DNA from: an uncultured Mollicutes bacterium
GTDB taxonomy: Bacteria > Bacillota_I > Bacilli_A > RFN20 > CAG-288
Reading direction: 5' to 3'
Assembly (NCBI GenBank): GCA_900539865.1
Contig: UQDS01000003.1
Location: 10,477-74,476 of the forward strand
DNA length: 64,000 bases
Positions 17,508 to 62,499 of the stretch are shown piece after piece; positions within the stretch are counted from its first letter, which is position 1; each line of letters opens with the position of its first letter. The position numbers were made by a program, and so were the translations under genes. Under the pieces are notes generated by a model. That model was given only the letters and a program-made list of their open reading frames with translations. It was not told the DNA's origin and did not search any database.

Positions 17508-20500
17508 ATGAATCAATACACATTAAGCAAATGGGCCGATCTTTTATTAGATACCGGAAAAAGAAACAATCTTATCAATTTTAACAGCAACACCGCAAGC
17601 AGCGTAGAAATCATACAACCGAATTTTCAAAGTGTTTTTGATGCCATAAAACATCGTCGAACCTTAGAAATTTATAACCCAAAAAGTATCTTTGATGAAG
17701 ACGACGGCAGTCTGAAGAAAGAAGTGAACATTCCCCGTCAAGAATATATTCGCATCCACGGATTTAAATTAAAAGGAAGACAAGTCTTAATTTATCATCC
17801 TCTTTACAACCCCATTTCTTCCATCAAAGGCTTAAAGAAAAAAGCAGCATCTGTCATTGAAGAAACAGGTATCAACATCCTGTATATGGCGTTTGGCTTT
17901 GTCAATTGGAAAGAGAAAGATAACAGCGAAGACATCATGAGCGCTCCTTTGCTTTTGGTTCCCATTTCCATCAGCAACGAATCTGCTATTTCACCTATTT
18001 GCATCAATGTTATTGAAGATGATATTCTCACTAACCCAACTTTTGTTTATAAACTGCAACAAGAATATGGAATATCTTTGCCGGAATATGAAAATGAAGA
18101 GGACGATGACGTCCTTCATTATTTACATAAATTAGAGGACATTTTCCTTAAGCTCGATTGGCATATTGATTATTCGTGTAAAATTGCGCTTTTCTCCTTT
18201 CAAAAGCTCAATATGCACAACGACTTAAAGGATAACTGCGATATCATCATGGAAAGTCCAAATGTTCGCGCTCTTTCCGGTGAATCCATCTCTCAAGGAA
18301 ATTTAAGTCCAATATCAATTGAAAAATCAACGAATCCGCTGATTGAGTTACACAATGTTGTCGATGCGGATTCAAGTCAGATCGAAGCGATTGAAATGGC
18401 AAAACAAGGAAAGAGTTTTGTCTTACAAGGTCCTCCGGGAACCGGAAAAAGTCAAACGATCACCAACATCATTGCCGAATGTCTTTACGATGGGAAAAAA
18501 GTTTTGTTTGTCTCAGAAAAAATCGCAGCATTGAATGTCGTTTATGACAAATTAAAGAAAGCGAAATTGTCTGAATTTTGTTTGGAATTACATAGTCATA
18601 AAGCAAATAAAAAAGACTTTATTCAACAGCTCTATGACACTCTTCATTTACCAAAATACGAATTAAAAGAAGATGCGTTAAACGAATTGGAAACGCTAAA
18701 AAATGCACAACAACAATTGGATGAATATGACCATCAACTTCATCTGATCCATCCAGAGATGAACGAATCCGTCTACCAAATGCACGAAGAATATAACAAA
18801 TATAGTCATACACCCAACAGCAATTATTTAATACCGGATATTGCCTCTAAAGACAAAGAATATCTTTTAAAAGCCGAAGAGCTGTTAAATCACTATGTCA
18901 GCTTTATCTCAACGCTTGGTTACGACTACCACCAAAGCATATTCTACGGTTTCCAAATTCAAAACACATCACAAAGTTCATTAAGTTCGTTATATCGCGA
19001 CTTTACTCAATCGCGTCTTTACATAGAAAAAATCGATCAAATAAACGATAAAATTCTGCCTGAGTACGGCCTTAAAATCCGCAATCTAGAGACACTCGAT
19101 ACCATTGAATCCCTTATTCTCTTAATAAAAGACAGTCAGTTCATCATCCCTGAAGATTTTGAAATAAACACCTTAAATGACAATATAAATCTCTACCAAA
19201 AATTCAAGGGTACATTAGACTTATACAATGATAGAACACAAAAATTAAATGAGCATTTTAACAAAGGTATATACGAATTAAACGGAAGAGAATTAAAAGA
19301 AAAATTTGAAGATAAATATTCAAATTGGTTTAAGCGTTTCTGCAGTCGCAAGTATAAAAAAGACCGTAAAGAAATTCGAGTGCATCTACTAAATCCCGAT
19401 GAAAAACTTAACTTCAAGTCTCTGAAAAATTATGCCGAAATACTCTTTGATTCCCAAAGCGCAAGAAATCAATTTGACAAACTTGTCGCCAACCCTGCTT
19501 TTACCATCACCGAAGGTTTTCGCGGATTGCAAAGCACATTCGACGACGCTTTAGAAGAGCTTACGAAATTAAAGACACTTCTTTCTTCCTTAGGTTTTGA
19601 AACAAATCTCTCTACACTTACCTATCAACAGTTTGTCACGGAAAAGGGCGAATTTAAAGCAATCGGAGAGGAACTAGAGCAATTACATCTCACTTATGGC
19701 GAATCCTTCCAACGCATTAACGACGCTTTCGACACGAATCTTTTCAACCCGAGAAAACACACGCTAGAGCAGTTGAAATATCATTACCAGCAGATGTCTG
19801 ATCAAATCGAAAAGCTACCAGATTGGTGTCATTTCTTACAAGATTTAACAAGAATGAGAGAGCTCGGTGTCTCTTCTTATTTAGATACATGCTTAAAAGA
19901 AAAAGTTCAAAAAGAACACATTGTATCTATGTATCACAAACAGTTCTACGTCCAATGGATGGAGCATTTGATTCACCTAGATCCCGTCTTGTCATCTTTC
20001 TATCGTCTCCCCCATGACGAAGCGGTAAACGTCTTCCAAAAAGAAGACAAAATAAACTTTGAAATTAACAAATCTAAGATTAAATCCAAGCTCTCTTTCA
20101 CTCGTCCTGATTTGAGTCTCGTCATTCCGGGAAGCCCCACAGCAACCGTCTTAAGAGAGGGAGAAAAAAAGAGAAAGATTAAAAGCATCCGAACACTTCT
20201 TGCAGAAGTTCCGGAGACCATTCAAAACATCAAACCTTGTTTTCTTATGTCCCCCTTAAGTGTCAGCACCTATTTAAGCCCTCATATGAAATTCGATGTC
20301 GTCATCTTTGACGAAGCCTCTCAAATCTTCCCACAAGATGCCATTGGAGCCATTTATAGAGGCAATCAACTCATTGTTGTCGGTGACTCTATGCAAATGC
20401 CTCCAAGTAACTTCTTTAACACGATTCGCGTCAGTGATATCGACGATAAAGATGAAGATGAAAACCTCTCAGATTATGAATCCATTTTAGATATTTGTTC

Positions 20501-22106
20501 TTCTATCTTCCCCCACAAGCAACTCCGATGGCATTATCGAAGCCGCAATGAGCAATTGATTGCCTTTTCCAACAAGAATTATTATCACAACAACCTCATT
20601 TCTTTCCCTTCTTGTCAAAAGGATATTAGAGAAGATGTCGGTGTCGACTACATTTACACCGCAGGTACTTTTGACCGCAAGAGTAAAACAAATCGATTAG
20701 AAGCAGAGAAAGTAGTAGACCTTGTCTTCCAACACATAAAGAAACACCCTGCGCAAAGTCTCGGTGTTGTCGCCTTTAGCATCGCGCAACAAAGCTTGAT
20801 TGATCGTCTCATTCACAAACGTCGCGTTCTTTCTCCCGAGACAGAAAGTTTCTTCCGTTCTGATGTAGCGGAGCCTTTCTTTGTTAAAAATCTCGAAACA
20901 GTGCAAGGCGATGAAAGAGATGTCATCATTTTCTCTACCGCGTATGCCAAAGATAGCTCAGGACATTTTAGTCTCAATTTTGGTCCGTTAAACAAAGAAG
21001 GCGGCGAAAGAAGACTCAACGTTGCTATCACAAGAGCAAAGATCAACATAAAATTAGTAACCTCCATGCACGAGAGCGACATCGATCTCTCCCGCACCGG
21101 ATCACTTGGTATTAAATTGATCAAAGAATATCTTGATTTTGCAGAACACGGACAAAAAGCGCTCAATTTATCCGCATTCGATAAAGAGCAAGAACAACAT
21201 ACCAGCGTCGAAAATGAAATTCGCGATTTCCTCGCTCAAAAAGGTTATAAATCCGACATCAAAGTCGGATATTCTTCCTTTAGAGTAGACATTGCCATTA
21301 AGCATCCTAAAACAGACGATTATTTCTTTGCTATTGAGATGGATGGCCCAAGTTATCATCAGTGCCAAAACACGAGAGATAGAGAACGTCTACGCCAAGA
21401 AGTGTTGGAGAATATGGGTTGGAATTTCTATCGTATCTGGACGCCAGATTGGTTTAGCAACACCGCAGCAGAAAAAGAAAGACTCTTGGAATATTTGACG
21501 AATACCGTAAATAAAACGATTTCTTTTAAAACCACAAATGAATCTAAAATTATTCCAATATTTGAACAAGAAACAAACGTTGGTTTTTTTTTCCCAAGAT
21601 ATAAGATGTCAGATGTAATTGACATGTATAGAAGTCACGATAACGATCCCTACAAAACGATGAAAGCAATCATAGAAGCCGAGGCGCCAATCAACAAAGA
21701 TTGGTTGATAAAGAGAATGCTTCCTCTTTTCCAACGCGACCGCATCAACGATGCCATTCGCGATACTTTCCAGATGTACACCTATCAATTAGAAGAAGAC
21801 AATATCTTCTTAATCGATGATTTCTTCTATTGTGGTGAAACGCCAGAGATATCGATGCTTCGCGTCCCTTTAGGAAGTAACCCTCGCGACTTAAAACACA
21901 TCAGCATTTACGAAATTGCAGGTGCATTAGAAAAGCTGATTCAAGTCAATAAAACAGTCAATAAAGATAGTCTCTTCCACGCGATTGTCGATCTTTTAAA
22001 CATTTCAAGACTCACAGAAAACGTCGAGAATCGCTTAGCAGAAAGTCTCAGTTTGATCCAAGATGAAATCGATATTAACGATAATGTGATTCGTTGGATC
22101 GATTAA
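17508..22106 (+). CDS. Upf1-like SF1 helicase fused to a DUF559/Vsr-like PD-(D/E)xK nuclease; the layout resembles DUF4011 - AAA_11/AAA_12 - REase - DUF3320
   Basis: 1,532 aa. N-terminal WADLLLDTGKRNNLINF (DUF4011-like). Walker A GPPGTGKSQTI (nt ~18429). Motif II VIFDEASQI, then VVGDSMQMPPS, VQGDERDVIIFS and RLNVAITRAK. Nuclease core FRVDIAIK...FAIEMDGPSYH...RDRERLRQEVLENMGWNFYRIW (nt ~21205-21500). Confidence 0.85.
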   Translation: MNQYTLSKWADLLLDTGKRNNLINFNSNTASSVEIIQPNFQSVFDAIKHRRTLEIYNPKSIFDEDDGSLKKEVNIPRQEYIRIHGFKLKGRQVLIYHPLYNPISSIKGLKKKAASVIEETGINILYMAFGFVNWKEKDNSEDIMSAPLLLVPISISNESAISPICINVIEDDILTNPTFVYKLQQEYGISLPEYENEEDDDVLHYLHKLEDIFLKLDWHIDYSCKIALFSFQKLNMHNDLKDNCDIIMESPNVRALSGESISQGNLSPISIEKSTNPLIELHNVVDADSSQIEAIEMAKQGKSFVLQGPPGTGKSQTITNIIAECLYDGKKVLFVSEKIAALNVVYDKLKKAKLSEFCLELHSHKANKKDFIQQLYDTLHLPKYELKEDALNELETLKNAQQQLDEYDHQLHLIHPEMNESVYQMHEEYNKYSHTPNSNYLIPDIASKDKEYLLKAEELLNHYVSFISTLGYDYHQSIFYGFQIQNTSQSSLSSLYRDFTQSRLYIEKIDQINDKILPEYGLKIRNLETLDTIESLILLIKDSQFIIPEDFEINTLNDNINLYQKFKGTLDLYNDRTQKLNEHFNKGIYELNGRELKEKFEDKYSNWFKRFCSRKYKKDRKEIRVHLLNPDEKLNFKSLKNYAEILFDSQSARNQFDKLVANPAFTITEGFRGLQSTFDDALEELTKLKTLLSSLGFETNLSTLTYQQFVTEKGEFKAIGEELEQLHLTYGESFQRINDAFDTNLFNPRKHTLEQLKYHYQQMSDQIEKLPDWCHFLQDLTRMRELGVSSYLDTCLKEKVQKEHIVSMYHKQFYVQWMEHLIHLDPVLSSFYRLPHDEAVNVFQKEDKINFEINKSKIKSKLSFTRPDLSLVIPGSPTATVLREGEKKRKIKSIRTLLAEVPETIQNIKPCFLMSPLSVSTYLSPHMKFDVVIFDEASQIFPQDAIGAIYRGNQLIVVGDSMQMPPSNFFNTIRVSDIDDKDEDENLSDYESILDICSSIFPHKQLRWHYRSRNEQLIAFSNKNYYHNNLISFPSCQKDIREDVGVDYIYTAGTFDRKSKTNRLEAEKVVDLVFQHIKKHPAQSLGVVAFSIAQQSLIDRLIHKRRVLSPETESFFRSDVAEPFFVKNLETVQGDERDVIIFSTAYAKDSSGHFSLNFGPLNKEGGERRLNVAITRAKINIKLVTSMHESDIDLSRTGSLGIKLIKEYLDFAEHGQKALNLSAFDKEQEQHTSVENEIRDFLAQKGYKSDIKVGYSSFRVDIAIKHPKTDDYFFAIEMDGPSYHQCQNTRDRERLRQEVLENMGWNFYRIWTPDWFSNTAAEKERLLEYLTNTVNKTISFKTTNESKIIPIFEQETNVGFFFPRYKMSDVIDMYRSHDNDPYKTMKAIIEAEAPINKDWLIKRMLPLFQRDRINDAIRDTFQMYTYQLEEDNIFLIDDFFYCGETPEISMLRVPLGSNPRDLKHISIYEIAGALEKLIQVNKTVNKDSLFHAIVDLLNISRLTENVENRLAESLSLIQDEIDINDNVIRWID

Positions 22107-52759: not shown

Positions 52760-52760
52760 C

Positions 52761-52819
52761 AAAAAACAGCCCTTGGAATTCTCTGCTGTCAAAGGCAGAT
52801 TATTCCGGGCTGCTTTTTT
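52761..52819. terminator. Bidirectional terminator between the ATPase gene and the giant-paralog operon
   Basis: AAAAAACAGCCCTTGGAA...TTCCGGGCTGCTTTTTT, with an inner CTGC/GCAG stem. Confidence 0.6.
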
Positions 52820-55800
52820 ATTGCTTGATTAAAATCTTTTTTGCTTTGACTTCTACAAGCTTTTGCAAAACGAAGAAAAAGAAACGAAGTATATATGAAA
52901 GCAGATCTTGAGCTTTATCAAAGTCAGCTTCTTTCTCTAAATGTAAACGATCCATCAGCACGCTGTAATACTTTGTCAACTCAGCGATGCTTTTCTTTTG
53001 ACGATAGGCAAAGTTCAAAGAGTGATAAATGATTTTAGAATCTTCTTGATACATCAAAAGCAACAGCTTTTTTGCGCGATAAATCAACTCTGTTTCTTCT
53101 GTACAGATTTTGATTTGTTCACTGTAAGAATGCACTAAAAACTCATACATGACTTCATCGGGAAGAAGATAGTGCTTTGTATCTCCGCTCAGTTCTTCCG
53201 CAAGCTTTACATCGATATCATCCAATTCTTCAAAAAGTTCTCTTTTATCTTTCTCCTGCTCTATCGTCGCTCCTTCTAACGCCGGATAAACATAGGATGT
53301 AGGTGCAAGATAAAGACCTTCCTTTACCAGAAGATTTCTCACTTGCATACTATCATAAATCGCATTGAATTGCGGTTGATATAAGCGCGAGAAGCGACCG
53401 GCGTAGGGTAAGCTTTCCTCCGGATATTCTTCGTCGATAAAAGTAAAGTGCTTTTCTAGGTCTTTCTTTGTCAATCTGCGCTTTCTCTTTTTCATCACCG
53501 AGAATAACTCTTTGTAAAAACAATAGGGAATTCCCGTGCTGACAAGGCGTGATACAACGTCTTCTAACGAAGGTGATTCCTGTTGAATTCTATCATTAAA
53601 ACAAGAATTAATAACAAACAACAAAGCTTCCTTGTCACGATTTAAAAACGAAAATTCTTTTCCATCTTTGCTATAAGCATTAAAAATTCTGCCTGGCATA
53701 ACATAGATTTTTCCAAACTTATCAAAGAAATGAACATAATAATCAAGATATGATTTCGGATCTTCTTTCACACCGGTTATATATTCTTCAAAGATGGTTT
53801 GATAGTAAAATATCAAAGCATATACCAATTTATCCTGTGTCGAGGTGGCTTCCTGAAAACTTGCTTTATTCATCAGGAAATCACTTGTTCGTTCTATGTT
53901 GTCTATTGTGAGATTTTCCTGTTCTTGGTTTGGTAAGATCTCTTTTAAAAATGCAATTTCATTTATTGGATTAAGCAAAGAGCTCACCCGTTTTGGAAGC
54001 GCAGTTTTATTTACAAAAAAGTTCAATCCGCTCGGGGGTTGCAAGAAAAAGATTCCCTGCGCTAAGCCTGGATAAACATATTGAGATAACACTTTAAAGT
54101 ACGGATCGTTTTTAAGAAAGAGCTGATGATCTTTACGCTCAAAGATAGAAATACCTTTTTCAAAGAAAACATCGCTTTTAGAAACACAATCAGGCAATCC
54201 AAAGAATTCTGTTAAAGTTCCATTGTGTTTCGACATTTGGAATTCGTTTCCGTAGAATACAAATGTCATTGGAAACTGACCATCTTTAAAAAGGCGTTGC
54301 GAATAGATTTCTTTCAATGCTCCTATTCTATCTTCATCTTGACTGTCCATATAGAAGAAATCTTTGTTTTTGTAAACGACAAAGTTTCTTCCTAAGTTTA
54401 CAAGAGGGAAATTTAAATAAGGGTCATAAAAAGAATCCATGCGGAAAGAAGTCATTTTTTGGTTGAATTTTATCCCTTCGTTGTAAAGATATTTCCCGCT
54501 TTCTTGATCAAACATTTGCATAGTGATGATATAAAACAACATCGCAAAATCAGAAAATTCTAAATCTTCACTTTCAGGGCATTGATAAAAAGCTTCTTTG
54601 ATTGTATAGCCATCTTTCATCAACGAAAAGAGACGCTCAAAAAGAGGTATGATATTATTTTCATCTTGCTTTGAGATTTTCTCTACTACTTGAATGATGG
54701 CAGCATGATCCGATTGTCCTTGTAAAAGATAGGTGATAAAGTCCGTTAAGGAGGACTGAATTCTCTTTGCGTTTCCTCTAGTTAAATCAAGGAAGCTTTG
54801 CTTCTTACCAGTATAAACAAAGAAAAAATCTGTGTTGAAACGATTCCCTAAACAAAAAGAGTAGTTATAAAATAAACCGTTTGTATTTTTTAAATAACGA
54901 GCGATATTGCCTTCTTTTAATCCTTCCGAACTTGTGAGACCATCTCTCGAGATACATGGTAAAACAATACCACAATCACGATAGCTTCCTTCTTCGCTTT
55001 CAAAAGGAAGCAAAGACAACATCTGCGATGCATTGCCACGCATAAAATCGAATTTTTTCAAATACTCATAAGCAGGATAAGGAAGACCCATCATTTTTAA
55101 AAATACATGTGGCATGTAAGCAAATTCTAAATGGCGATCAAAATACTTTTTCACCGTGTCAAAAGCTAACATCATCTTCTTTTTATCCCCTTCTAAAAGG
55201 ACATAAGATTCTGGGTAATAATCGCAAACAACCTGATCTTCCTCTTTGCGGAAGTGATGATAATCAATGCCAAACATATCAAAAGACAAACCGTAATACA
55301 CGTAACCAAAATAAGCACCTGGTGTTTTTAAGTCATGATCTAAAATATCAATAGATAACAAAGATTCAAACTGATATTCTTTGTAGAAAAATTCGTTGAT
55401 CAATTTTCTTGCTATGGATAAAAAGTAGCGTCTCATGCAAAGTCTGAATTCTTTTTCGGGCAGATCTTTTGCGATAGAATCCAGTGGTTCAAATGCGATA
55501 CGAACTTGTTCTTCTAAAGATAAGCTCTCCATTCTACCAAAAGTTCTTTTAAAAGCAACTCTATTAAAAATATATGGATTTGTACAAAAGTCCATAAAGA
55601 GCTTTACTGAATTTTCTTTGTTTTTTAACAAATAAGGTAATAGTTTTTCAACATCGATACGAACCGGATAATAATTAAAATTATCCGCTTCTGGGTTGAG
55701 AACTCTCTCTAAATTTTGTAAGAAGAACCCTTTAGAAATAAGATAGTTTATGCACCCGATCAACGCATATCTATCGCTATATAGAATTTTAGGATTGTTG

Positions 55801-56204
55801 TCCTCTTTATCTAAGAATCCATAACCGCGATTTAAGCCTTCTTCAAAGTGAATGCGCGATAGAATCTCCGCGGGCGGGATAGAAAATACATCCTTGCTCG
55901 TTTTACTTGTTCTTGTTAAAAGAGAAGAAGGCAAACCTAACACTTGTGATAAAACCTCTTGTACTGCTTCTGTTGTCTTCATCGTCTGGTTGTTGTTTGT
56001 GAAAATAGGATAATATTCTTTGCTGAAAAATTTCTCGTAAAAACGGATACGCTCCACCAGCGATTCTTTGTCTTCTATCGCCATATGAAATACGCCGACA
56101 TCATCTAAATAAGCATCGTAAAAAGCGCCAGAGAATTCTTTTTTATATTTTGTGTCGTGGCTAAAGGAAATATCTGTTGTGAATAATTGTGCTGTAAATT
56201 CCAT
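52818..56204 (-). CDS. Giant orphan protein B (1,128 aa), paralog of the upstream gene; four ~270-aa repeats; function unknown
   Basis: Uninterrupted 3.4-kb ORF starting 4 nt after the upstream stop. Homologous to protein A along its length. Recurring GLP-centred motif at aa 90, 373, 669 and 891. No signal peptide, TM segment or known catalytic motif. Confidence 0.7.
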   Translation of the reverse strand: MEFTAQLFTTDISFSHDTKYKKEFSGAFYDAYLDDVGVFHMAIEDKESLVERIRFYEKFFSKEYYPIFTNNNQTMKTTEAVQEVLSQVLGLPSSLLTRTSKTSKDVFSIPPAEILSRIHFEEGLNRGYGFLDKEDNNPKILYSDRYALIGCINYLISKGFFLQNLERVLNPEADNFNYYPVRIDVEKLLPYLLKNKENSVKLFMDFCTNPYIFNRVAFKRTFGRMESLSLEEQVRIAFEPLDSIAKDLPEKEFRLCMRRYFLSIARKLINEFFYKEYQFESLLSIDILDHDLKTPGAYFGYVYYGLSFDMFGIDYHHFRKEEDQVVCDYYPESYVLLEGDKKKMMLAFDTVKKYFDRHLEFAYMPHVFLKMMGLPYPAYEYLKKFDFMRGNASQMLSLLPFESEEGSYRDCGIVLPCISRDGLTSSEGLKEGNIARYLKNTNGLFYNYSFCLGNRFNTDFFFVYTGKKQSFLDLTRGNAKRIQSSLTDFITYLLQGQSDHAAIIQVVEKISKQDENNIIPLFERLFSLMKDGYTIKEAFYQCPESEDLEFSDFAMLFYIITMQMFDQESGKYLYNEGIKFNQKMTSFRMDSFYDPYLNFPLVNLGRNFVVYKNKDFFYMDSQDEDRIGALKEIYSQRLFKDGQFPMTFVFYGNEFQMSKHNGTLTEFFGLPDCVSKSDVFFEKGISIFERKDHQLFLKNDPYFKVLSQYVYPGLAQGIFFLQPPSGLNFFVNKTALPKRVSSLLNPINEIAFLKEILPNQEQENLTIDNIERTSDFLMNKASFQEATSTQDKLVYALIFYYQTIFEEYITGVKEDPKSYLDYYVHFFDKFGKIYVMPGRIFNAYSKDGKEFSFLNRDKEALLFVINSCFNDRIQQESPSLEDVVSRLVSTGIPYCFYKELFSVMKKRKRRLTKKDLEKHFTFIDEEYPEESLPYAGRFSRLYQPQFNAIYDSMQVRNLLVKEGLYLAPTSYVYPALEGATIEQEKDKRELFEELDDIDVKLAEELSGDTKHYLLPDEVMYEFLVHSYSEQIKICTEETELIYRAKKLLLLMYQEDSKIIYHSLNFAYRQKKSIAELTKYYSVLMDRLHLEKEADFDKAQDLLSYILRFFFFVLQKLVEVKAKKILIKQ

Positions 56205-56208
56205 CGTA

Positions 56209-59200
56209 TTATTTCCCCACTTTCATTTCCAAATCTAAATAAGCGTCAATGATGTCCTCTTCAAGAAGACGTAAGAAACAGACAATCACTTGTAATACTT
56301 CATCTAAAATACCAGGACGTATTCTCTTTGCCTCCTTAAATGTTGTTAAGACAAGTTCTCTTGCGCTCTTAGAATTGTATACATTATCATTCGCTTTAAA
56401 AAAGATATCAGGATCTTGCAAATAGCTGTCCATCAGAAGGGCGTTTGCTCTCGCGAGGGCTTCTGTATTAAAGTCTGTGTGTTCTTTTAAGAAAGAAAAG
56501 TTTTCATCCATCAGCAATTTAGAGGGACGAAAAGCGTGTAACAAGGCATCTGGCATTTTTTGAGCTTGCGAGAAATAAATGAATGCGAGGTTGTTATCGA
56601 AAGGTCGCAGATTTAAATCAAAACGATATTCTTTATTCAAATAAAATGTTCGTATATCAAAAGGAGAAATAAAGAATATACCGTCTTTGATCATGCGTTC
56701 TTTGACAAAGCGAAGCTCTGCCTTATTTTCTTCTTTATACGGATAACATTTGCGGAACATCTCTTCATAAGCACAGTGATTAATATTTGTGCAATTGCGA
56801 CAAATTTCTTCTTTAAAAGAAAGTTTCGACATGAAATCTTTGATATTATTTGTAGAAAAATCGAAATCTTTCAAACGATAAATCACCGGATAAGGTAGAC
56901 CGATGGTCGTCAACAAAAAAGCTGTCCTAACTTCGCTAGGAAGAACTTCGTTGTTTGAGCTATTCAAACACTCTTCTAAACTCATTTCAATCGCATCGCG
57001 ATCACATTCGCAAAAATAATATTCTCCTTGAACTGGATCTCTTGTATACGCATTGAATACGTTTCCTAAAAGAATATACGGATAAGGAAGACGCACATTA
57101 TAATCCATATTCAAAGAGAATTCATGGAAACTAGAAGAAACAATATTTTCAGATACATACAACGAATAAGCGACTTCCAACAATTTATAAACGTACAAAA
57201 GACAATTGAAAATTCGCTCATGCTCAAAGACAAGCGGATATAATTCCTTTGTGCAAGAAAACATCATTTTTCGAATGATTTTTATATCCAATTCCAAAAA
57301 GGAACATAAATCATCGATATAATCTTGAACATCTGCATTATCTTGCAAAGCGGATAAGACAAGACAGGCCAACATGTTCTTATCCACAATCAAATAAGGT
57401 TTAAGAATGTCATCCATGTGTTCTATGTCTACGTCAATAAGAGAATAATATGTCCCTTTTTTTAGTTTTTGACCGACATCGTCAATTGTTTTTTTCAAAG
57501 AAATTGTCTGATTGACAAACATTCCGTGGAGACAGGCGTTGGCTCGAATATAGGTCAAGTAAACGTTATAATCTTCTCCTTCGTTAAAATCCAACACATC
57601 ATGATTGCTCGGCTTGCTTCCCAAACAAGCATGACAAATATGGTCTTCAAAAGAAAGCTGAGGCATGATTTCCTCTGTTGGATCGATGTTGTTTGTTACA
57701 TCCCATGGCAAACCAAGTTCACGGAGTATGAATTGATTTTTACTTTCAATATTCCTATTTTTCTCTATCTCATCATATTTTTTACCCAAAAATTCAATCT
57801 TCTTTTCAATCGCTTTTCTTTCGCTCATACAAAGATGAGGTTTTCCAAAATAAGACTTGCGGAAAGAGTAACACAACAAGCCCTTTGTCACATACGGATA
57901 AGGAAGATTCGGTTCATAAGAATTATCCTTTTTAGGAACAACATCTAAAATTGCCATCGAAGCGATATTCTTTGTTTGGTTGATTTCTTTTCTGCTTTCT
58001 ACCTTCGCGATGAAGAAGGGATACACCAGCAAATAAGAAAAGAAATCTAATAAAGATTCAGAAAGAGAAAGCACTAAATCCAAGCGAGACAAAAGAATTT
58101 CAACGACATCCTTAAGGGAACGATATTTAAACAGGGAATAAAAATAGGAGCACGCTCTATTTTGACTTGCTTGATCAATCAAAGAAAGCCGACATTCTAA
58201 ATCCGGTTCATAGACAAGATGACGATAGAGAAGATAAGAAGGGAGAATATCTTCTACCAAGGAACACTCTTCTTCAAAAAGATGTTTCAACCATTTGCTT
58301 CTTTCACGAGGGAAAATATTGATATAAACTTCCTTCTTTTGGTTCTCTTCAAAAAAAGCTTGCAGCGGATAACATAAGAAGCCTTGATTTAAAAGATATC
58401 GTTCGAACAACACGAAGTGATTTTCTTCCTCCGAAGGCGCATAACTATAAAACAAATCAAATCTTTTACAAGAGATGTAGGTGAAATCTTTATCAATTTT
58501 TTTACTAAAAGGAAGTCTTTTTAAAATGTCATCTAAGGTGAAATCGACAAGATCTTTCACATAAGAAAAGCCTTCATAAGGAAGACACATTCTCGCATAA
58601 ATGTTAAGAATATCATGGTTTCCATATGTTTCGATCAATTGTGACAATGATTCACGAATGCGTTTTTTATCACTGTAAGAGAAGACAAAATGTTCTTTAT
58701 CTTGCGAATACATCTCCCCATGGAAAGAAGAAATAGAATAGATAGAAAGATCTGAATAAATTTTATTTGGTGTTAAATATGATGTTTTGGTCGTTAATTT
58801 ATTCAACTTTTCCAAACAATATTGGTCATATAATGTATTGATGATCGAGGCGATATACTGGCGTAAAAGATATGCGTATTTTTTCTCAAACACCGGATCA
58901 CCATTAATTTGATTCAATTCCGGATCAAAGTATCCGTTGATAAAGTAAGAAACTCTTCTTGCCAAAGAGAAGCAATCGAAATCCTTCATCAATTTGACCA
59001 TCTTCTCATCATATGTTCTGCACAAAAAATCGATGGTAAGTCTCTGACTACCGCTCTCTAGATATAACTTTTTTAAATCATCCGAAAAGCGCGCTTCGTC
59101 AAAAAAGATCGGAATGGTGTTATTCTCTTCTTCCACAAAAGGTTTCGTCTCATCATAAAGGAAGTAAACACCTCTAGATAAGCAGTATAATCTAAAGTCG

Positions 59201-59607
59201 TCCGCATACCATTTACATCCGTAAAAATTCGCATATTGCATATAACAATCTTTTTTCAATGTAGAAAGGTCGCTTCTAAAATTCAACTGCGAAAGAATAT
59301 CATAGTGTAAGTCTAATTGATCAAACAAAAGAGGGGGAAGCCCCAAAATTTGTTTGAGTACTTCTCTCTCTGATGTCGGTTTATTCGTAAAATATTTTCC
59401 GTCATAAACGGGATAATTTCTTTGCGGTTTGATCTGATTTTCGTAAAAAGAAAGGCTTGCTTTGATGGAGTCAAAATCTTCAATAGAGAGAAAGATATTA
59501 TCTTCGTTGTCTACGAAAGCAACATGAAAGAGGCCAAAAAGCGCCTTCTTATAGACAAGAGAGTAACTGATCATCAATTCGCTCTGTTGAAAAAAACGAT
59601 ATCCCAT
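56209..59607 (-). CDS. Giant orphan protein A (1,132 aa); four ~270-aa repeats; function unknown
   Basis: Uninterrupted 3.4-kb ORF with RBS AGAGGAA 8 nt upstream. GLP-centred motif at aa 89, 341, 632 and 903. CxxC pairs occur only in repeats 3 and 4 (ICHAC aa 657-661, ICRNC aa 935-939). Confidence 0.7.
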   Translation of the reverse strand: MGYRFFQQSELMISYSLVYKKALFGLFHVAFVDNEDNIFLSIEDFDSIKASLSFYENQIKPQRNYPVYDGKYFTNKPTSEREVLKQILGLPPLLFDQLDLHYDILSQLNFRSDLSTLKKDCYMQYANFYGCKWYADDFRLYCLSRGVYFLYDETKPFVEEENNTIPIFFDEARFSDDLKKLYLESGSQRLTIDFLCRTYDEKMVKLMKDFDCFSLARRVSYFINGYFDPELNQINGDPVFEKKYAYLLRQYIASIINTLYDQYCLEKLNKLTTKTSYLTPNKIYSDLSIYSISSFHGEMYSQDKEHFVFSYSDKKRIRESLSQLIETYGNHDILNIYARMCLPYEGFSYVKDLVDFTLDDILKRLPFSKKIDKDFTYISCKRFDLFYSYAPSEEENHFVLFERYLLNQGFLCYPLQAFFEENQKKEVYINIFPRERSKWLKHLFEEECSLVEDILPSYLLYRHLVYEPDLECRLSLIDQASQNRACSYFYSLFKYRSLKDVVEILLSRLDLVLSLSESLLDFFSYLLVYPFFIAKVESRKEINQTKNIASMAILDVVPKKDNSYEPNLPYPYVTKGLLCYSFRKSYFGKPHLCMSERKAIEKKIEFLGKKYDEIEKNRNIESKNQFILRELGLPWDVTNNIDPTEEIMPQLSFEDHICHACLGSKPSNHDVLDFNEGEDYNVYLTYIRANACLHGMFVNQTISLKKTIDDVGQKLKKGTYYSLIDVDIEHMDDILKPYLIVDKNMLACLVLSALQDNADVQDYIDDLCSFLELDIKIIRKMMFSCTKELYPLVFEHERIFNCLLYVYKLLEVAYSLYVSENIVSSSFHEFSLNMDYNVRLPYPYILLGNVFNAYTRDPVQGEYYFCECDRDAIEMSLEECLNSSNNEVLPSEVRTAFLLTTIGLPYPVIYRLKDFDFSTNNIKDFMSKLSFKEEICRNCTNINHCAYEEMFRKCYPYKEENKAELRFVKERMIKDGIFFISPFDIRTFYLNKEYRFDLNLRPFDNNLAFIYFSQAQKMPDALLHAFRPSKLLMDENFSFLKEHTDFNTEALARANALLMDSYLQDPDIFFKANDNVYNSKSARELVLTTFKEAKRIRPGILDEVLQVIVCFLRLLEEDIIDAYLDLEMKVGK

Positions 59608-59623
59608 ATACTATTCCTCTACT

Positions 59624-61225
59624 TTACTCAAACATGATCGTGCAACTATCGGACTTAATATCTCCTATCGTAAAGTCAAACAATGGTTTAGAACCATCAT
59701 CAAATTTGAAGTTTTGATAAACATCTGAGAAACGATCACCTTTTTTAAACAGCGACTGATTATTTGCATAGCCGGTTAAGCCGCCTTGTATCTTACTTCC
59801 GGTTGCCGGAAGAAGAGATACCAAACGGCCGCGGTAATACTGCATACCGCGATCTTTGATTGTTTGATCGATAGAGTACGAATAAGTATTGCTGTAAAGA
59901 GGCATGAAAATAGAATTATAATCGTTCTGGCTGGCAAGAGGGATTTTATCATAGGCGCAACCATCCCAAGCGACTTGCGTATTGGAAACGGCTTTTAACT
60001 TACCTACTCTCGCATTGACGTGATATACCAAAACACCCGTATCTGTATAAGTGTTCAAAGACATTCCCGGGAAAGTAGAGTCTTTTTGATTGAGTCCTGT
60101 TGGTGTGTAATATTCTAAAAGAAGATATTCATCATAGGGGGTGTAGTTATAATCCATTCCCGATGTATTAACACTCGACGCAATAGGAATCAAGAAAGAT
60201 TCTCCGGCTTTTTGTGCTTTCAAGGTCAAAACCGGACCATTTAAATCTAAATATTCTTTTGAGACTAATGTCGGTGTGTTCCAACCCAAAAGGTATTTTG
60301 AAAAAGCACAATGATCTCCGATATTGAAGTCCATCATATCGACACCACCCATCGGGGTATCAAAATTATTGCTGTTGTTGTAATCGTAAGAATAGTAATC
60401 ATCTAAACCAAGAAGATGACCTGTCTCATGAATAAACGTATGCGCATCGGCAACATTTTCAGAACCACCGAAAGAGCTATAATCGAGTTCTCTTAAAAAG
60501 TCGACGCTTGCCCAAGCATAATTGCAAACTTTATAACCGTTGAAAGACGCGTTGGAATGAGCCCATGTAGTATAAGCCCAAAACGCATCGGAATGAGCGT
60601 TAGAAGAAGGGGAATAAACCATCCAAACAGCATCAAGATATCCGTCCTTGTCGGTATCGTAAGAAGATAAATCAACGCTGGTTTGATCTGCTAAAGTCTT
60701 CATCGCACCTTCTAAAATAAGGTCGGTATATGTTATTCCATTGCTAGCATATTTGTCATAATTTCTTTGAAGTTCTGCCGTTGTCTGATTCAAAGCAATC
60801 ACAGGTGCAACTTCGCCAGTAATATTCAATTTACCGCCGCTCGATTTTTTATAAAAAGAAGAGACGGATTCCCATCCTGTTTGTTCGCTTTCTCCAAAAA
60901 ATCCGTTTTGGATCAACCGCAATTCCTTTTGTGAGAAAACATCGTCTTTTGTCTGAATCGGAACAACCAAAATCTTACGATCACCTGTCGAAGGTAAATA
61001 ACGATAATCTAATTGGGCACCCATGTTCTTCACATTGAGGTTTTCTTTGGCGTCCTTATTTGTGTAGGTCGGGGTTTTATAGTATCCCTCTACCACAGGC
61101 CCGGTATAATTTCCTTCCGTGTTCGAACTTGTATGAGAGATATCCAGATAGAAGCAGGAAGTTGTTAACGGAAGAATAGAAAAAAGGGCTAACAACATTG
61201 CTATTTTTTTTGTTTTTTGATACAT
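59624..61225 (-). CDS. M6-like (immune inhibitor A-type) zinc metalloprotease lipoprotein
   Basis: 533 aa with signal peptide and lipobox LPLTTSC. The N-terminal KILVVPIQTKDD and the zinc site FIHETGHLLGLDDYY resemble the M6-family metalloprotease domain. RBS GGAG. Confidence 0.7.
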   Translation of the reverse strand: MYQKTKKIAMLLALFSILPLTTSCFYLDISHTSSNTEGNYTGPVVEGYYKTPTYTNKDAKENLNVKNMGAQLDYRYLPSTGDRKILVVPIQTKDDVFSQKELRLIQNGFFGESEQTGWESVSSFYKKSSGGKLNITGEVAPVIALNQTTAELQRNYDKYASNGITYTDLILEGAMKTLADQTSVDLSSYDTDKDGYLDAVWMVYSPSSNAHSDAFWAYTTWAHSNASFNGYKVCNYAWASVDFLRELDYSSFGGSENVADAHTFIHETGHLLGLDDYYSYDYNNSNNFDTPMGGVDMMDFNIGDHCAFSKYLLGWNTPTLVSKEYLDLNGPVLTLKAQKAGESFLIPIASSVNTSGMDYNYTPYDEYLLLEYYTPTGLNQKDSTFPGMSLNTYTDTGVLVYHVNARVGKLKAVSNTQVAWDGCAYDKIPLASQNDYNSIFMPLYSNTYSYSIDQTIKDRGMQYYRGRLVSLLPATGSKIQGGLTGYANNQSLFKKGDRFSDVYQNFKFDDGSKPLFDFTIGDIKSDSCTIMFE

Positions 61226-61227
61226 AA

Positions 61228-61572
61228 TTAATCTCCGTAATCAGATCCTCGCGATTCCGGTTGAATCAATACTTTTGCTTGATCTGCCACATCCATAGCA
61301 GTTAAGAAAATCGCGTCCTCTGCATCGACGAGAGGATTGTCTTCTTGACCGACAAAAACAACCTTGCGATTGCGTTTTACAATTTCGTCCATCGTATCTA
61401 AAAGAGTCTGATAAGACTCTGGTCTTTGCATGCGATAACCTTGTAAATAAGTATAGAATTGAGGCTCGATATAAAAAATAGATCCGTCTTCATTTTGATA
61501 ACAAGTCGCAAAACGATTGCGAAGATCAATCAATATTTGTCTATCTGCCCATTCGGTGTATTTATGTTCCAT
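61228..61572 (-). CDS. Hypothetical 114-aa cytoplasmic protein, first gene of the operon
   Basis: The ORF ends 2 nt before the lipoprotein ATG. No recognisable motif. Confidence 0.5.
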   Translation of the reverse strand: MEHKYTEWADRQILIDLRNRFATCYQNEDGSIFYIEPQFYTYLQGYRMQRPESYQTLLDTMDEIVKRNRKVVFVGQEDNPLVDAEDAIFLTAMDVADQAKVLIQPESRGSDYGD

Positions 61573-61598: not shown

Positions 61599-61607
61599 AT
61601 TATAACA
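61599..61607 (-). promoter_or_regulatory. Extended -10 promoter element for the 114aa-M6-giant operon
   Basis: The minus strand reads TGTTATAAT, ~27 nt upstream of the ATG at 61572. Confidence 0.4.
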
Positions 61608-61656
61608 TGTTCATGAATTATTTTGTTTTGTACAATATTTAGCTTTATAAAGAGAT

Positions 61657-61685
61657 AATTAAAATTGCCTCTAAAAGAGGCAATA
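61657..61685 (-). terminator. Rho-independent terminator ending the sirtuin unit
   Basis: On the minus strand, TTGCCTCT-ttt-AGAGGCAA is followed by TTTTAATT. Confidence 0.65.
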
Positions 61686-61689
61686 AACT

Positions 61690-62034
61690 TTAATTTTGTC
61701 CAGCGACATAACAAGCTAACAAAGACAACGCTTCCGAAAGATAACGATAATCATTCTTCAAAGATTCCATTTTCACTTGATCAACACACGCTAGTGCAAT
61801 ATCAGAACAATCCCTAAAATATTTTCTCATTTTGGGATTTAACACTTCCGTATTTTCACACTCTGTTAAAGCTTTTTTTAAGCAATCCATCTTAGACTCA
61901 TAAGAAAAGTCCTCCGTAAAAGGTTTCTTTCCTTTCTGTTTGCGCTTCATCAACTTTATCGTCATTGCAATCAAAGGAGCTGCACTTGAAATAATATCGA
62001 AATCATCCGTCGTTTTTTTCTTCCAGGAAAACAT
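61690..62034 (-). CDS. Hypothetical 114-aa protein
   Basis: The ORF starts 3 nt after the upstream stop. Predicted helical and Cys-containing. No recognisable motif. Confidence 0.45.
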   Translation of the reverse strand: MFSWKKKTTDDFDIISSAAPLIAMTIKLMKRKQKGKKPFTEDFSYESKMDCLKKALTECENTEVLNPKMRKYFRDCSDIALACVDQVKMESLKNDYRYLSEALSLLACYVAGQN

Positions 62035-62037
62035 ACC

Positions 62038-62499
62038 CTACTCCTTTCTTTCGCAAAGCGAAATATCATGCATCACACGTTTATAAGAAGAAGGACAGTC
62101 CTCTCTCTCTAAAAGAACACTGCTCGACTCTAATAATGTTTTGATCAGAAAAGAAAAATTCAATTCTACCAAACAATACAAATTCATTTTATTGCTAACT
62201 TTTAAGACGGAGAGAATCAGCGCCAGATGTTCAAAAAAACTCTCATATTTTTCTAAGATAGCTACCGCCCCTTCATAATCGATGTAATCATCTGTGTGCG
62301 TGGTGATATAAAAAAGTTTTGCATCTTCTTTAGACAAATCTGCAACTTCTTCTTTTAATAAAGAAATTTCTTTGTCTAAATTCACTGTGTTTTTCAATAT
62401 AATATTTAATAAATTATTTAACGAAATCAAACATGCACTACCGCAAAAATAAGGAGAATCCTCTGCGATGAGCTCTGTTAATGAAAGACTTTTTTTCAT
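62038..62499 (-). CDS. Hypothetical 153-aa protein
   Basis: Its ATG overlaps the sirtuin stop (ATGA at 62496-62499). Predicted helical. No recognisable motif. Confidence 0.45.
   Translation of the reverse strand: MKKSLSLTELIAEDSPYFCGSACLISLNNLLNIILKNTVNLDKEISLLKEEVADLSKEDAKLFYITTHTDDYIDYEGAVAILEKYESFFEHLALILSVLKVSNKMNLYCLVELNFSFLIKTLLESSSVLLEREDCPSSYKRVMHDISLCERKE

Follow-up and report, generated by a model that had tools for sequence, protein, structure and literature searches.

The 64,000-nucleotide (nt) stretch of contig UQDS01000003.1 analysed here (assembly GCA_900539865.1, uncultured Mollicutes bacterium), called the window below, carries on its reverse strand two very large adjacent genes, A and B, whose products match no Pfam, NCBIfam, PADLOC or PHROG family. 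The locus raises the question how such giant proteins are built, where their building blocks come from and what they may do in the cell. The original prediction, made from the letters of the DNA, held that each protein is a fourfold internal repeat around a G-L-P motif and, speculatively, that the repeats are SUKH-type (SMI1/KNR4) immunity domains. The two genes and their modules, the boundaries of which are approximate, are as follows; positions are those of the window and residue numbers (aa, amino acids) those of the proteins.

56209..59607 (-): gene A, 1132 aa, four tandem modules (open reading frame and translation)
58753..59607 (-): A module 1, aa 1-285; GLP at aa 89-91 (nt 59335-59343); GxFFLYDETKPF
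57928..58752 (-): A module 2, aa 286-560; CLP at aa 341-343; without zinc ligands
57103..57927 (-): A module 3, aa 561-835; starts with LPYPYV; GLP at aa 632-634 (nt 57706-57714)
56212..57102 (-): A module 4, aa 836-1132; starts with LPYPYI; GLP at aa 903-905 (nt 56893-56901)
52818..56204 (-): gene B, 1128 aa, likewise four modules, paralogous to A
55251..56204 (-): B module 1, aa 1-318; GLP at aa 90-92
54420..55250 (-): B module 2, aa 319-595; MMGLPYPAYEYLKKFDF; GLP at aa 373-375
53721..54419 (-): B module 3, aa 596-828; GLP at aa 669-671
52821..53720 (-): B module 4, aa 829-1128; GIP at aa 891-893

Four tandem copies of one module in A and B

Each of the two proteins consists of four tandem copies of one module of ~280 aa. 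A collection of 5.8 billion proteins contains 31 full-length homologues of A and 17 of B (1090-1167 aa, all unnamed), and a profile of the A family with 31 members was compared with itself by hhalign, with reversed profiles as controls. At an offset of one module, residues 303-1029 align with 34-757 (E 5.8e-18, 648 columns); at two modules 591-1116 align with 39-527 (E 6e-12) and at three modules 859-935 with 34-114 (E 1.7e-3). These off-diagonal alignments are in register, at ~270, ~550 and ~825 aa, and the reversed controls gave E values of at least 0.23. The self-comparison proposed earlier as a check on the periodicity therefore returned significant repeats over the whole range from E 5.8e-18 to 1.7e-3 and confirms the fourfold repeat. 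The B family gives a weaker signal against itself (E 2e-4 to 2e-3). The profiles of the two families align collinearly over 1029 columns (E 1.7e-43) and show further off-diagonal alignments at offsets of one, two and three modules (E 1e-9 to 1.5e-12).

When both alignments were cut into four modules and all 28 pairs of module profiles were compared, the eight profiles formed one connected network. Modules at the same position in A and B are all significantly related (A1-B1 6.2e-26, A4-B4 1.8e-14, A3-B3 1.5e-8, A2-B2 1.3e-6), and high similarity is also found within A (A3-A4 8e-18, A1-A3 7e-10, A2-A4 1.4e-8) and between different positions of the two proteins (A1-B3 9.6e-10, A4-B2 4.4e-9). Tests of single sequences against shuffles gave z scores of 11.9 for A3-A4, 10.5 for A4-B2, 6.5 for A2-A4 and 4.6 for A1-B3, while A1-A2 and A2-A3 stayed at background. 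Since only some of the single-sequence pairs exceed their shuffles, part of the alignment of the four A modules that had been made by eye goes beyond what one sequence can prove; at the profile level the alignment stands. Even BLASTP detects the relationship locally, between A 898-1020 and B 368-473 (E 4e-6) and between A 844-906 and B 834-894 (E 2e-6). The eight motif positions named in the original prediction are exact (in A GLP 89, CLP 341, GLP 632 and GLP 903; in B GLP 90, 373 and 669 and GIP 891). The proposed spacing of ~250-295 aa describes A (252, 291 and 271) and the first two intervals of B (283 and 296), but the last B interval is shorter, at 222 aa.

Every pair of positional orthologues is significantly related, and A and B align collinearly along their full length; the profile comparisons therefore place the quadruplication before the split of A and B, which bears out the order of events suggested earlier. 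Modules 1 and 3 and modules 2 and 4 resemble each other. This fits a growth from one to two to four modules through two successive duplications before the A/B duplication, as suggested by the cross-similarities of 1 with 3 and 2 with 4 together with the existence of two-module relatives. An extra beta-hairpin insertion of the Y-P-V-Y-D-G..F type, located between the first helix and the GLP helix, is common to A1, B1 and B3 (A aa 60-78, B aa 60-80 and B aa ~640-660) and is missing from A3; its presence in these three modules fits modules 1 and 3 as duplicates.

The AlphaFold2 model of A, calculated with the 31-sequence alignment, has a mean predicted local distance difference test score (pLDDT) of 88.6 and a predicted template modelling score (pTM) of 0.78. 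In this model the four modules repeat one order of secondary structure elements. The N-domain, which is the first half of each module, is predicted to contain four short strands, a helix of 15-20 residues starting from D/E-K-x-x-I/L and helices around G-L-P; after these come a short strand at L-x-F, a knuckle formed by a short helix, and a helix that terminates in G-hydrophobic. The second half of each module is helical. In both families, conservation is highest in module 1. In A its mean column identity is 0.57, and invariant polar motifs are YDETKPF in A and QNLER in B. Foldseek searches with the whole-protein A model returned no neighbour among 350,542 PDB chains (best E 2.5) or in BFVD (best E 0.86). 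Confident models without a structural neighbour make the module a candidate new fold.

A and B are acidic, cytoplasmic, paralogous proteins of ~130 kDa. Their isoelectric points (pI) are 5.19 and 5.45 and their net charges -35 and -24, respectively, and all eight modules are acidic as well (pI 5.0-6.1). No signal peptide, transmembrane segment or hydrophobic window is present in A or B; the absence of a signal peptide and hydrophobic window rules out that they are secreted or membrane proteins. Gene B starts 4 nt past the stop codon of A and is preceded by a GGGGA ribosome-binding site. A third tandem paralogue beside the pair was looked for and not found. The hmmscan of A, B and the 31 A-family members against Pfam at E <= 1 gave no recurrent family, and no PHROG family matched A or B at E <= 0.01.

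Putative zinc ligands and the relatives of the module

The original prediction noted pairs of cysteines in repeats 3 and 4 of A that are not conserved in B, and column counts over the family alignments bear this out. Two sets of residues stand out:

57625..57831 (-): putative zinc-ligand set of A module 3, C593, position 595, C658, H659 and C661 (column counts; zinc binding inferred)
56776..57012 (-): putative zinc-ligand set of A module 4, C866, C868, C936, C939 and H944 (column counts)

Each ligand position of the two modules is conserved in 21-31 of the 31 sequences. In module 4, C866 is invariant (31/31), C868, C936 and H944 each occur in 29/31 and C939 in 24/31; in module 3, position 595 is a serine in A of the window and a cysteine in 21/31 homologues. 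The CxC...C(H)xxC ligands are kept only in these two modules, and the B family has no conserved Cys or His. Modules A1 and A2 and all B modules retain the fold motif despite the loss of the ligands.

The site also occurs in more distant relatives. An hmmsearch with the A profile over 1.84 billion representative sequences found 250 proteins at the cut-off of E <= 1e-3. Beyond the A and B families these include ~60 proteins that range from roughly 120 to 670 aa, the majority being 300-500 aa long, and that match only A ~565-700, the N-half of module 3. This short family corresponds to PHROG 19778 (~340 aa, annotated 'hypothetical protein'), which three members (P0227, P0266 and P0262) match at 1e-59 to 1e-73. 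Examples are Clostridium algidicarnis WP_216111822.1 and proteins of Haloplanus rubicundus and Brevibacillus. By hhalign, residues 6-164 of the short family align with A 559-725 in module 3 (E 1.5e-21), the module closest to its N-domain, and residues 14-112 with A 839-950 in module 4 (E 3e-12); the match to A module 1 is weak (E 0.011). The N-terminal ~160 aa of the short family read LPYPYV ... CxC-K-x-A-I ... FP ... F-K-D-x-I-C-H-x-C ... YGWYI..YE.GI. The alignment shows an invariant C-x-C ... C-H-x-C and, downstream of it, an invariant D ... E-Y-Q-G-x-Q-H.

The model of P0227 (pLDDT 94.5) has the same order of N-domain elements as the giants. In Foldseek searches this N-domain has no PDB match, whereas the C-terminal domain matches 1vsr and the catalytic domain of I-Bth0305I (3r3p_B), both with a probability of 1.00. 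The C-terminal part of the short family also matches PHROGs annotated as homing or HNH endonucleases, DUF2726 is a weak match in 9/31 members, and one relative is named a PDDEXK/DUF559 nuclease. As judged from the model, the C-half of the short family is a predicted PD-(D/E)xK nuclease like those of Vsr and I-Bth0305I. Whole P0227 also aligns by Foldseek over ~310 columns with lineage-specific mitoribosomal proteins of Tetrahymena (6z1p_AS) and Toxoplasma (9g6k_L9 and 9i05_Xg), with E 0.03-0.9 and a poor root-mean-square deviation; this match probably runs via the Vsr-like (RAP/FASTK-type) part.

The nuclease domain of the short family has no counterpart in A or B (best hhalign E 0.6). A degenerate nuclease hidden in the C-halves of the modules is ruled out by this E value and by the all-helical structure of the region in the model.

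Short-family hosts include Clostridium, Brevibacillus, Bacillus, bacteria of the candidate phyla radiation (CPR), Desulfobacterota and haloarchaea. Three loci with single-module relatives were inspected (L036 6001-7038, L037 6001-7005, L038 6001-7164). Two bacterial members lie within prophage lysogeny modules, with a helix-turn-helix (HTH) repressor gene and an ImmA-type (Peptidase_M78) gene on one or both sides and an integrase or recombinase gene downstream. The haloarchaeal member from Haloplanus is encoded near an OLD-family (OLD-TOPRIM) ATPase and HerA/NurA. Other relatives are fused to TerB_N, CpXC or ankyrin repeats and, weakly, to HRDC (P0132). Neither the short family nor the fusion relatives gave a meaningful PADLOC match, and the short-family N-domain is neutral in charge. 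The short family can be considered an uncharacterised candidate homing or defence nuclease family.

Two relatives carry two modules and no nuclease. P0080 (580 aa, L089 1952-3694) has retained both zinc sites; a gene for a Walker-A/DEAH ATPase with an N-terminal D..ExK motif (L089 3698-4966) lies 4 nt downstream of it. P0148 (645 aa, L090 444-2381) has no cysteines; its gene, like that of B in the window, adjoins a convergently oriented P-type ATPase gene. These proteins have the tandem arrangement of N-domain and helical half found in the giants, P0148 being free of zinc sites like B, but they contain half as many modules and occur in different neighbourhoods (L089 and L090). They are possible intermediates between the single-module and four-module forms.

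A comparison with described systems shows how far the likeness goes. PHROG 19778, the closest catalogued entity to the giants, shares the N-domain only: its N-terminal ~160 aa are homologous to the N-half of the modules and have the same order of secondary structure elements, and its CxC...CHxC domain is recognizable in A modules 3 and 4, where the ligands are mostly kept. PHROG 19778 proteins differ from the giants in having a single module followed by a Vsr-like PD-(D/E)xK nuclease, which the giants lack, and in their invariant zinc ligands, most of which the giants have lost. They are also borne by prophages or islands and are patchily distributed across bacteria and archaea, whereas the giants are syntenic and chromosomal, and neither A nor B matches the PHROG model. 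The plan of an N-terminal binding domain with a C-terminal Vsr-like nuclease is common to the single-module relatives, Vsr (1vsr) and EDxHD homing endonucleases such as I-Bth0305I (3r3p), in which an N-terminal DNA-binding region precedes the Vsr-like nuclease (PMC3239194). However, the Vsr-like domain is absent from A and B, and the N-terminal region of I-Bth0305I uses NUMOD/HTH motifs, not the zinc domain of the giants. Literature searches on giant proteins of RF39/Enterosoma and on DUF559 or Vsr-like prophage defence yielded nothing concerning these families. Since no described family, defence system or solved structure fits A, B or the module, we rate the A/B family, the module and the domain as new, where 'new' refers to family and fold and not to function.

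These relatives also bear on the proposal that the modules are SUKH/SMI1-KNR4 immunity domains and that A and B are poly-immunity proteins of a polymorphic toxin system. The giants do contain a short LGLP-containing helix motif (h-h-x-x-LGLP-x-x-Y-x-x-L) that resembles SUKH domains by eye, and this is what the proposal was built on. Yet none of the SUKH-clan profiles (SMI1_KNR4, SUKH-3/4/5/6) matched A, B or the 31 A-family members in Pfam at E <= 1, and the Foldseek search of the whole-protein A model against the PDB, which gave no neighbour at all, contained no SUKH entry. The topology around the motif is different: the GLP helix is not N-terminal but is preceded by a four-stranded beta unit and the zinc site. 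Linkage to toxin or secretion genes is not seen either, as the neighbours in the window are g114, an M6 lipoprotein, CobB, a P-type ATPase and a HAD hydrolase, and homologous loci are alike. The module is actually related to N-terminal domains that are joined to a nuclease, and not to immunity proteins. The SUKH assignment is thus highly improbable and is abandoned here.

Operon partners, distribution and divergence

A and B are the last two genes of a four-gene unit, g114, protease, A and B, with gaps of 2, 16 and 4 nt and a Shine-Dalgarno-like sequence before each gene. The remaining features of the unit and two other features of the window are:

61599..61684 (-): operon start; terminator-like hairpin of the preceding gene at 61684..61664 and extended -10 element TGTTATAAT at 61607..61599 (consensus matches only)
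61228..61572 (-): g114, first gene of the operon; 114 aa, acidic, invariant C-terminal SDYGD
59624..61225 (-): gene for an M6-type lipoprotein; 533 aa, signal ending in LTTSC, HETGH
52760..52818 (no strand): operon end; hairpin with A-/T-run flanks and a free energy (dG) of -30 kcal/mol (RNA fold), before the convergent P-type ATPase gene (Pfam)
61690..62034 (-) and 62038..62499 (-): two small unannotated genes between CobB and the operon
17508..22106 (+): 1532-aa protein with DUF4011, AAA_11/AAA_12 (Upf1-like helicase) and REase_MTES_1575 nuclease domains, a defence-type helicase-nuclease architecture

The hairpin at 52760..52818 is likely a bidirectional terminator. The 533-aa protein resembles M6 (InhA-type) metalloproteases in its HETGH motif and its match to the M6 domain model TIGR03296 (E 9.7e-25), but the score of 88 bits is under the curated cut-off of 110.8 and the protein is a lipoprotein; Pfam Peptidase_M6 gives E 1.9e-5. 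For g114, the most conserved gene of the operon, no family or PDB match was obtained. Searches of PADLOC-DB 2.0 at E <= 0.1 returned no match for A, B, the protease or g114, and no meaningful PDB match came from sequence searches started with the A family, the short family, g114 or the protease.

The cassette of g114, protease, A and B was found in 29 GTDB species genomes and ~30 metagenome contigs. The hosts are uncultured Bacilli from gut, rumen and fermenters, including Ca. Enterosoma and metagenome-assembled genomes (MAGs) labelled Bacilli, Bacillales or Erysipelotrichaceae. Two GTDB records of Bacteroidales (L018, Alistipes onderdonkii, and L020, Bacteroides uniformis) contain the Bacilli-type cassette among the same neighbours; these contigs are probably mis-binned. 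In most genomes the cassette occupies one chromosomal site with CobB upstream and HAD, RNase T, PfkB, DeoR and Dus genes downstream; in a few it is relocated as a block (L003). No relative of A or B was found among the viral contigs of IMG/VR, and this result and the syntenic chromosomal context led us to reject the idea that the giants are encoded by phages. Among Ca. Enterosoma-like Bacilli the cassette appears to be transmitted by vertical descent. Elsewhere the window has the content of an ordinary chromosome, including UvrA, UvrB, maltodextrin genes and ABC transporters.

Sequence identity to the proteins of the window differs strongly across the loci. It is 62-84% for g114 (48% in L034), 60-75% for CobB and 42-54% for the protease, and falls to 28-40% for A (full-length matches) and 23-37% for B. 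The protease gene is next to A in nearly all loci, but the partners are separable: L034 has g114, A and B without protease, L071 has g114 and protease without A and B, and g114 stands alone in L086 and L078. The A-then-B pair is the sole constant. The occurrence of g114 without A/B weakens the case for g114 as an obligatory subunit, and the case for the protease as an obligatory partner is weakened by its absence from L034 and its presence without A/B in L071. Distant copies of g114 (44-51% identity) are present in other gut contigs without A/B, either with the M6 protease only or after genes for Sir2 and a 159-aa protein. The Sir2-type gene upstream of the operon was considered as a defence partner and rejected, as it encodes a housekeeping CobB deacylase (NF001752, 335 bits), and CobB is not beside the cassette in L003, L028 and L057. 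Of the small genes between CobB and the operon, g114b encodes a basic protein with 25-42% identity across loci and g153 is present in few loci; in some genomes one gene of 230-270 aa fills the slot of g114b and g153.

Possible functions of the A/B pair

In view of the above, the reading that we prefer is that A and B form a non-nucleolytic binding scaffold, probably as an A-B hetero-complex, in which the zinc sites are structural and module 1 is the most constrained surface. We infer this and give it a probability of somewhat less than one half (about 0.45). According to this proposal the giants would not be nuclease-type enzymes. A hetero-complex is suggested by the genes being always adjacent, 4 nt apart, and by their common domain plan. 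The scaffold would present eight diverged copies of a domain that formerly served target recognition or regulation in a nuclease, with two structural zinc sites remaining in A and module 1 serving as the most constrained surface. The compact, fixed fold predicted for A (pTM 0.78) is in agreement with such a role. The complex would belong to the lineage-specific, vertically inherited equipment of Ca. Enterosoma-like gut Bacilli and would be expressed together with g114 and the surface M6 metalloprotease from a single operon.

Several observations weigh against the scaffold proposal. The pairing of A with B is deduced from gene order alone. The invariant motifs of module 1 (YDETKPF in A and QNLER in B) could form the active site of a non-nuclease enzyme. 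The acidic charge of the proteins (-35 and -24) argues against non-specific binding of nucleic acid and so removes the simplest guess for a ligand. A cytoplasmic scaffold leaves co-transcription with an extracellular lipoprotein protease unexplained; that a surface protease should be co-transcribed with two cytoplasmic giants is puzzling in any case. The operon partners can be separated from A/B (L034, L071, L086) and therefore tell little about the function of the pair. Finally, the fast divergence of A (30-39% identity) and B (23-37%), as compared to the 60-75% identity of CobB, would also fit a role in conflict.

Such a role can be imagined if A and B string together copies of the recognition domain of prophage Vsr-like nucleases, without the nuclease itself, and act as decoy, sensor or dominant-negative 'immunity' against such nucleases or phage. 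In function this would come close to the earlier poly-immunity idea, with another domain as the building block. The only relatives of the module are indeed fused to nucleases within prophage lysogeny modules or beside OLD and HerA-NurA genes, other fusion partners are TerB_N, CpXC and ankyrin, P0080 is encoded 4 nt upstream of the Walker-A/DEAH ATPase with an N-terminal D..ExK motif, and A and B diverge much faster than their neighbours. However, the cassette appears to be inherited vertically throughout the lineage at a single syntenic chromosomal site and is neither patchy nor island-borne, it has no PADLOC matches, it is absent from viral contigs, and no toxin, nuclease or effector partner is present in the operon. 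This makes a conflict system unlikely. Its more specific form, in which A and B are a chromosomal anti-nuclease or anti-phage device whose eight nuclease-free copies of the PHROG 19778 recognition domain act as a decoy or dominant-negative trap for nucleases or their targets, is somewhat less likely again; if it were true, A and B would be poly-immunity proteins in function, built on an undescribed zinc-domain fold and not on SUKH. A role of the modules as domesticated DNA or RNA recognition domains, with A and B as multivalent organisers of DNA or RNA, would follow from analogy with the architecture of I-Bth0305I (PMC3239194; Foldseek 3r3p_B). It would be consistent with the zinc-knuckle-like CHxC and the aromatic-rich conserved motif of the short family, and with the weak HRDC fusion in P0132. 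We regard it as unlikely, since A, B and all eight modules are acidic (pI 5.0-6.1), the N-domain of the short family is neutral, the zinc ligands are lost in 6/8 modules and no match to known DNA-binding folds was found.

The last option is that A and B are large enzymes with an active site in module 1, operating in a pathway with their partners, for example by modifying or processing g114 or an envelope component that is then handled by the M6 lipoprotein. The strong conservation of module 1 in both families, with its invariant polar motifs, and the tight four-gene operon with the very conserved g114 ending in SDYGD point in this direction. On the other hand, searches of Pfam, NCBIfam and PDB sequences and by Foldseek revealed neither a catalytic family nor a nucleotide-binding motif or enzyme fold, g114 and the protease occur without A/B and A/B without the protease, and the operon contains no transporter. 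An enzymatic role is accordingly considered quite unlikely.

Whatever their function, three entities described here are nameless in Pfam, NCBIfam, PADLOC and PDB: the ~160-aa CxC...CHxC domain, the ~280-aa module and the pair of giant paralogues. The domain occurs in hundreds of bacterial, archaeal and prophage proteins, where it is usually coupled to a Vsr-like nuclease, and the giant pair is conserved across a lineage of uncultured gut Bacilli with reduced genomes (Ca. Enterosoma and relatives). The pair clearly exemplifies how a domain of mobile elements can be multiplied, lose its catalytic partner and become established as a core protein of the cell. Should A and B counter related nucleases or organise nucleic acid, this would represent a new mechanism; if they serve only as a scaffold, they are still among the largest conserved uncharacterised proteins of these genomes.

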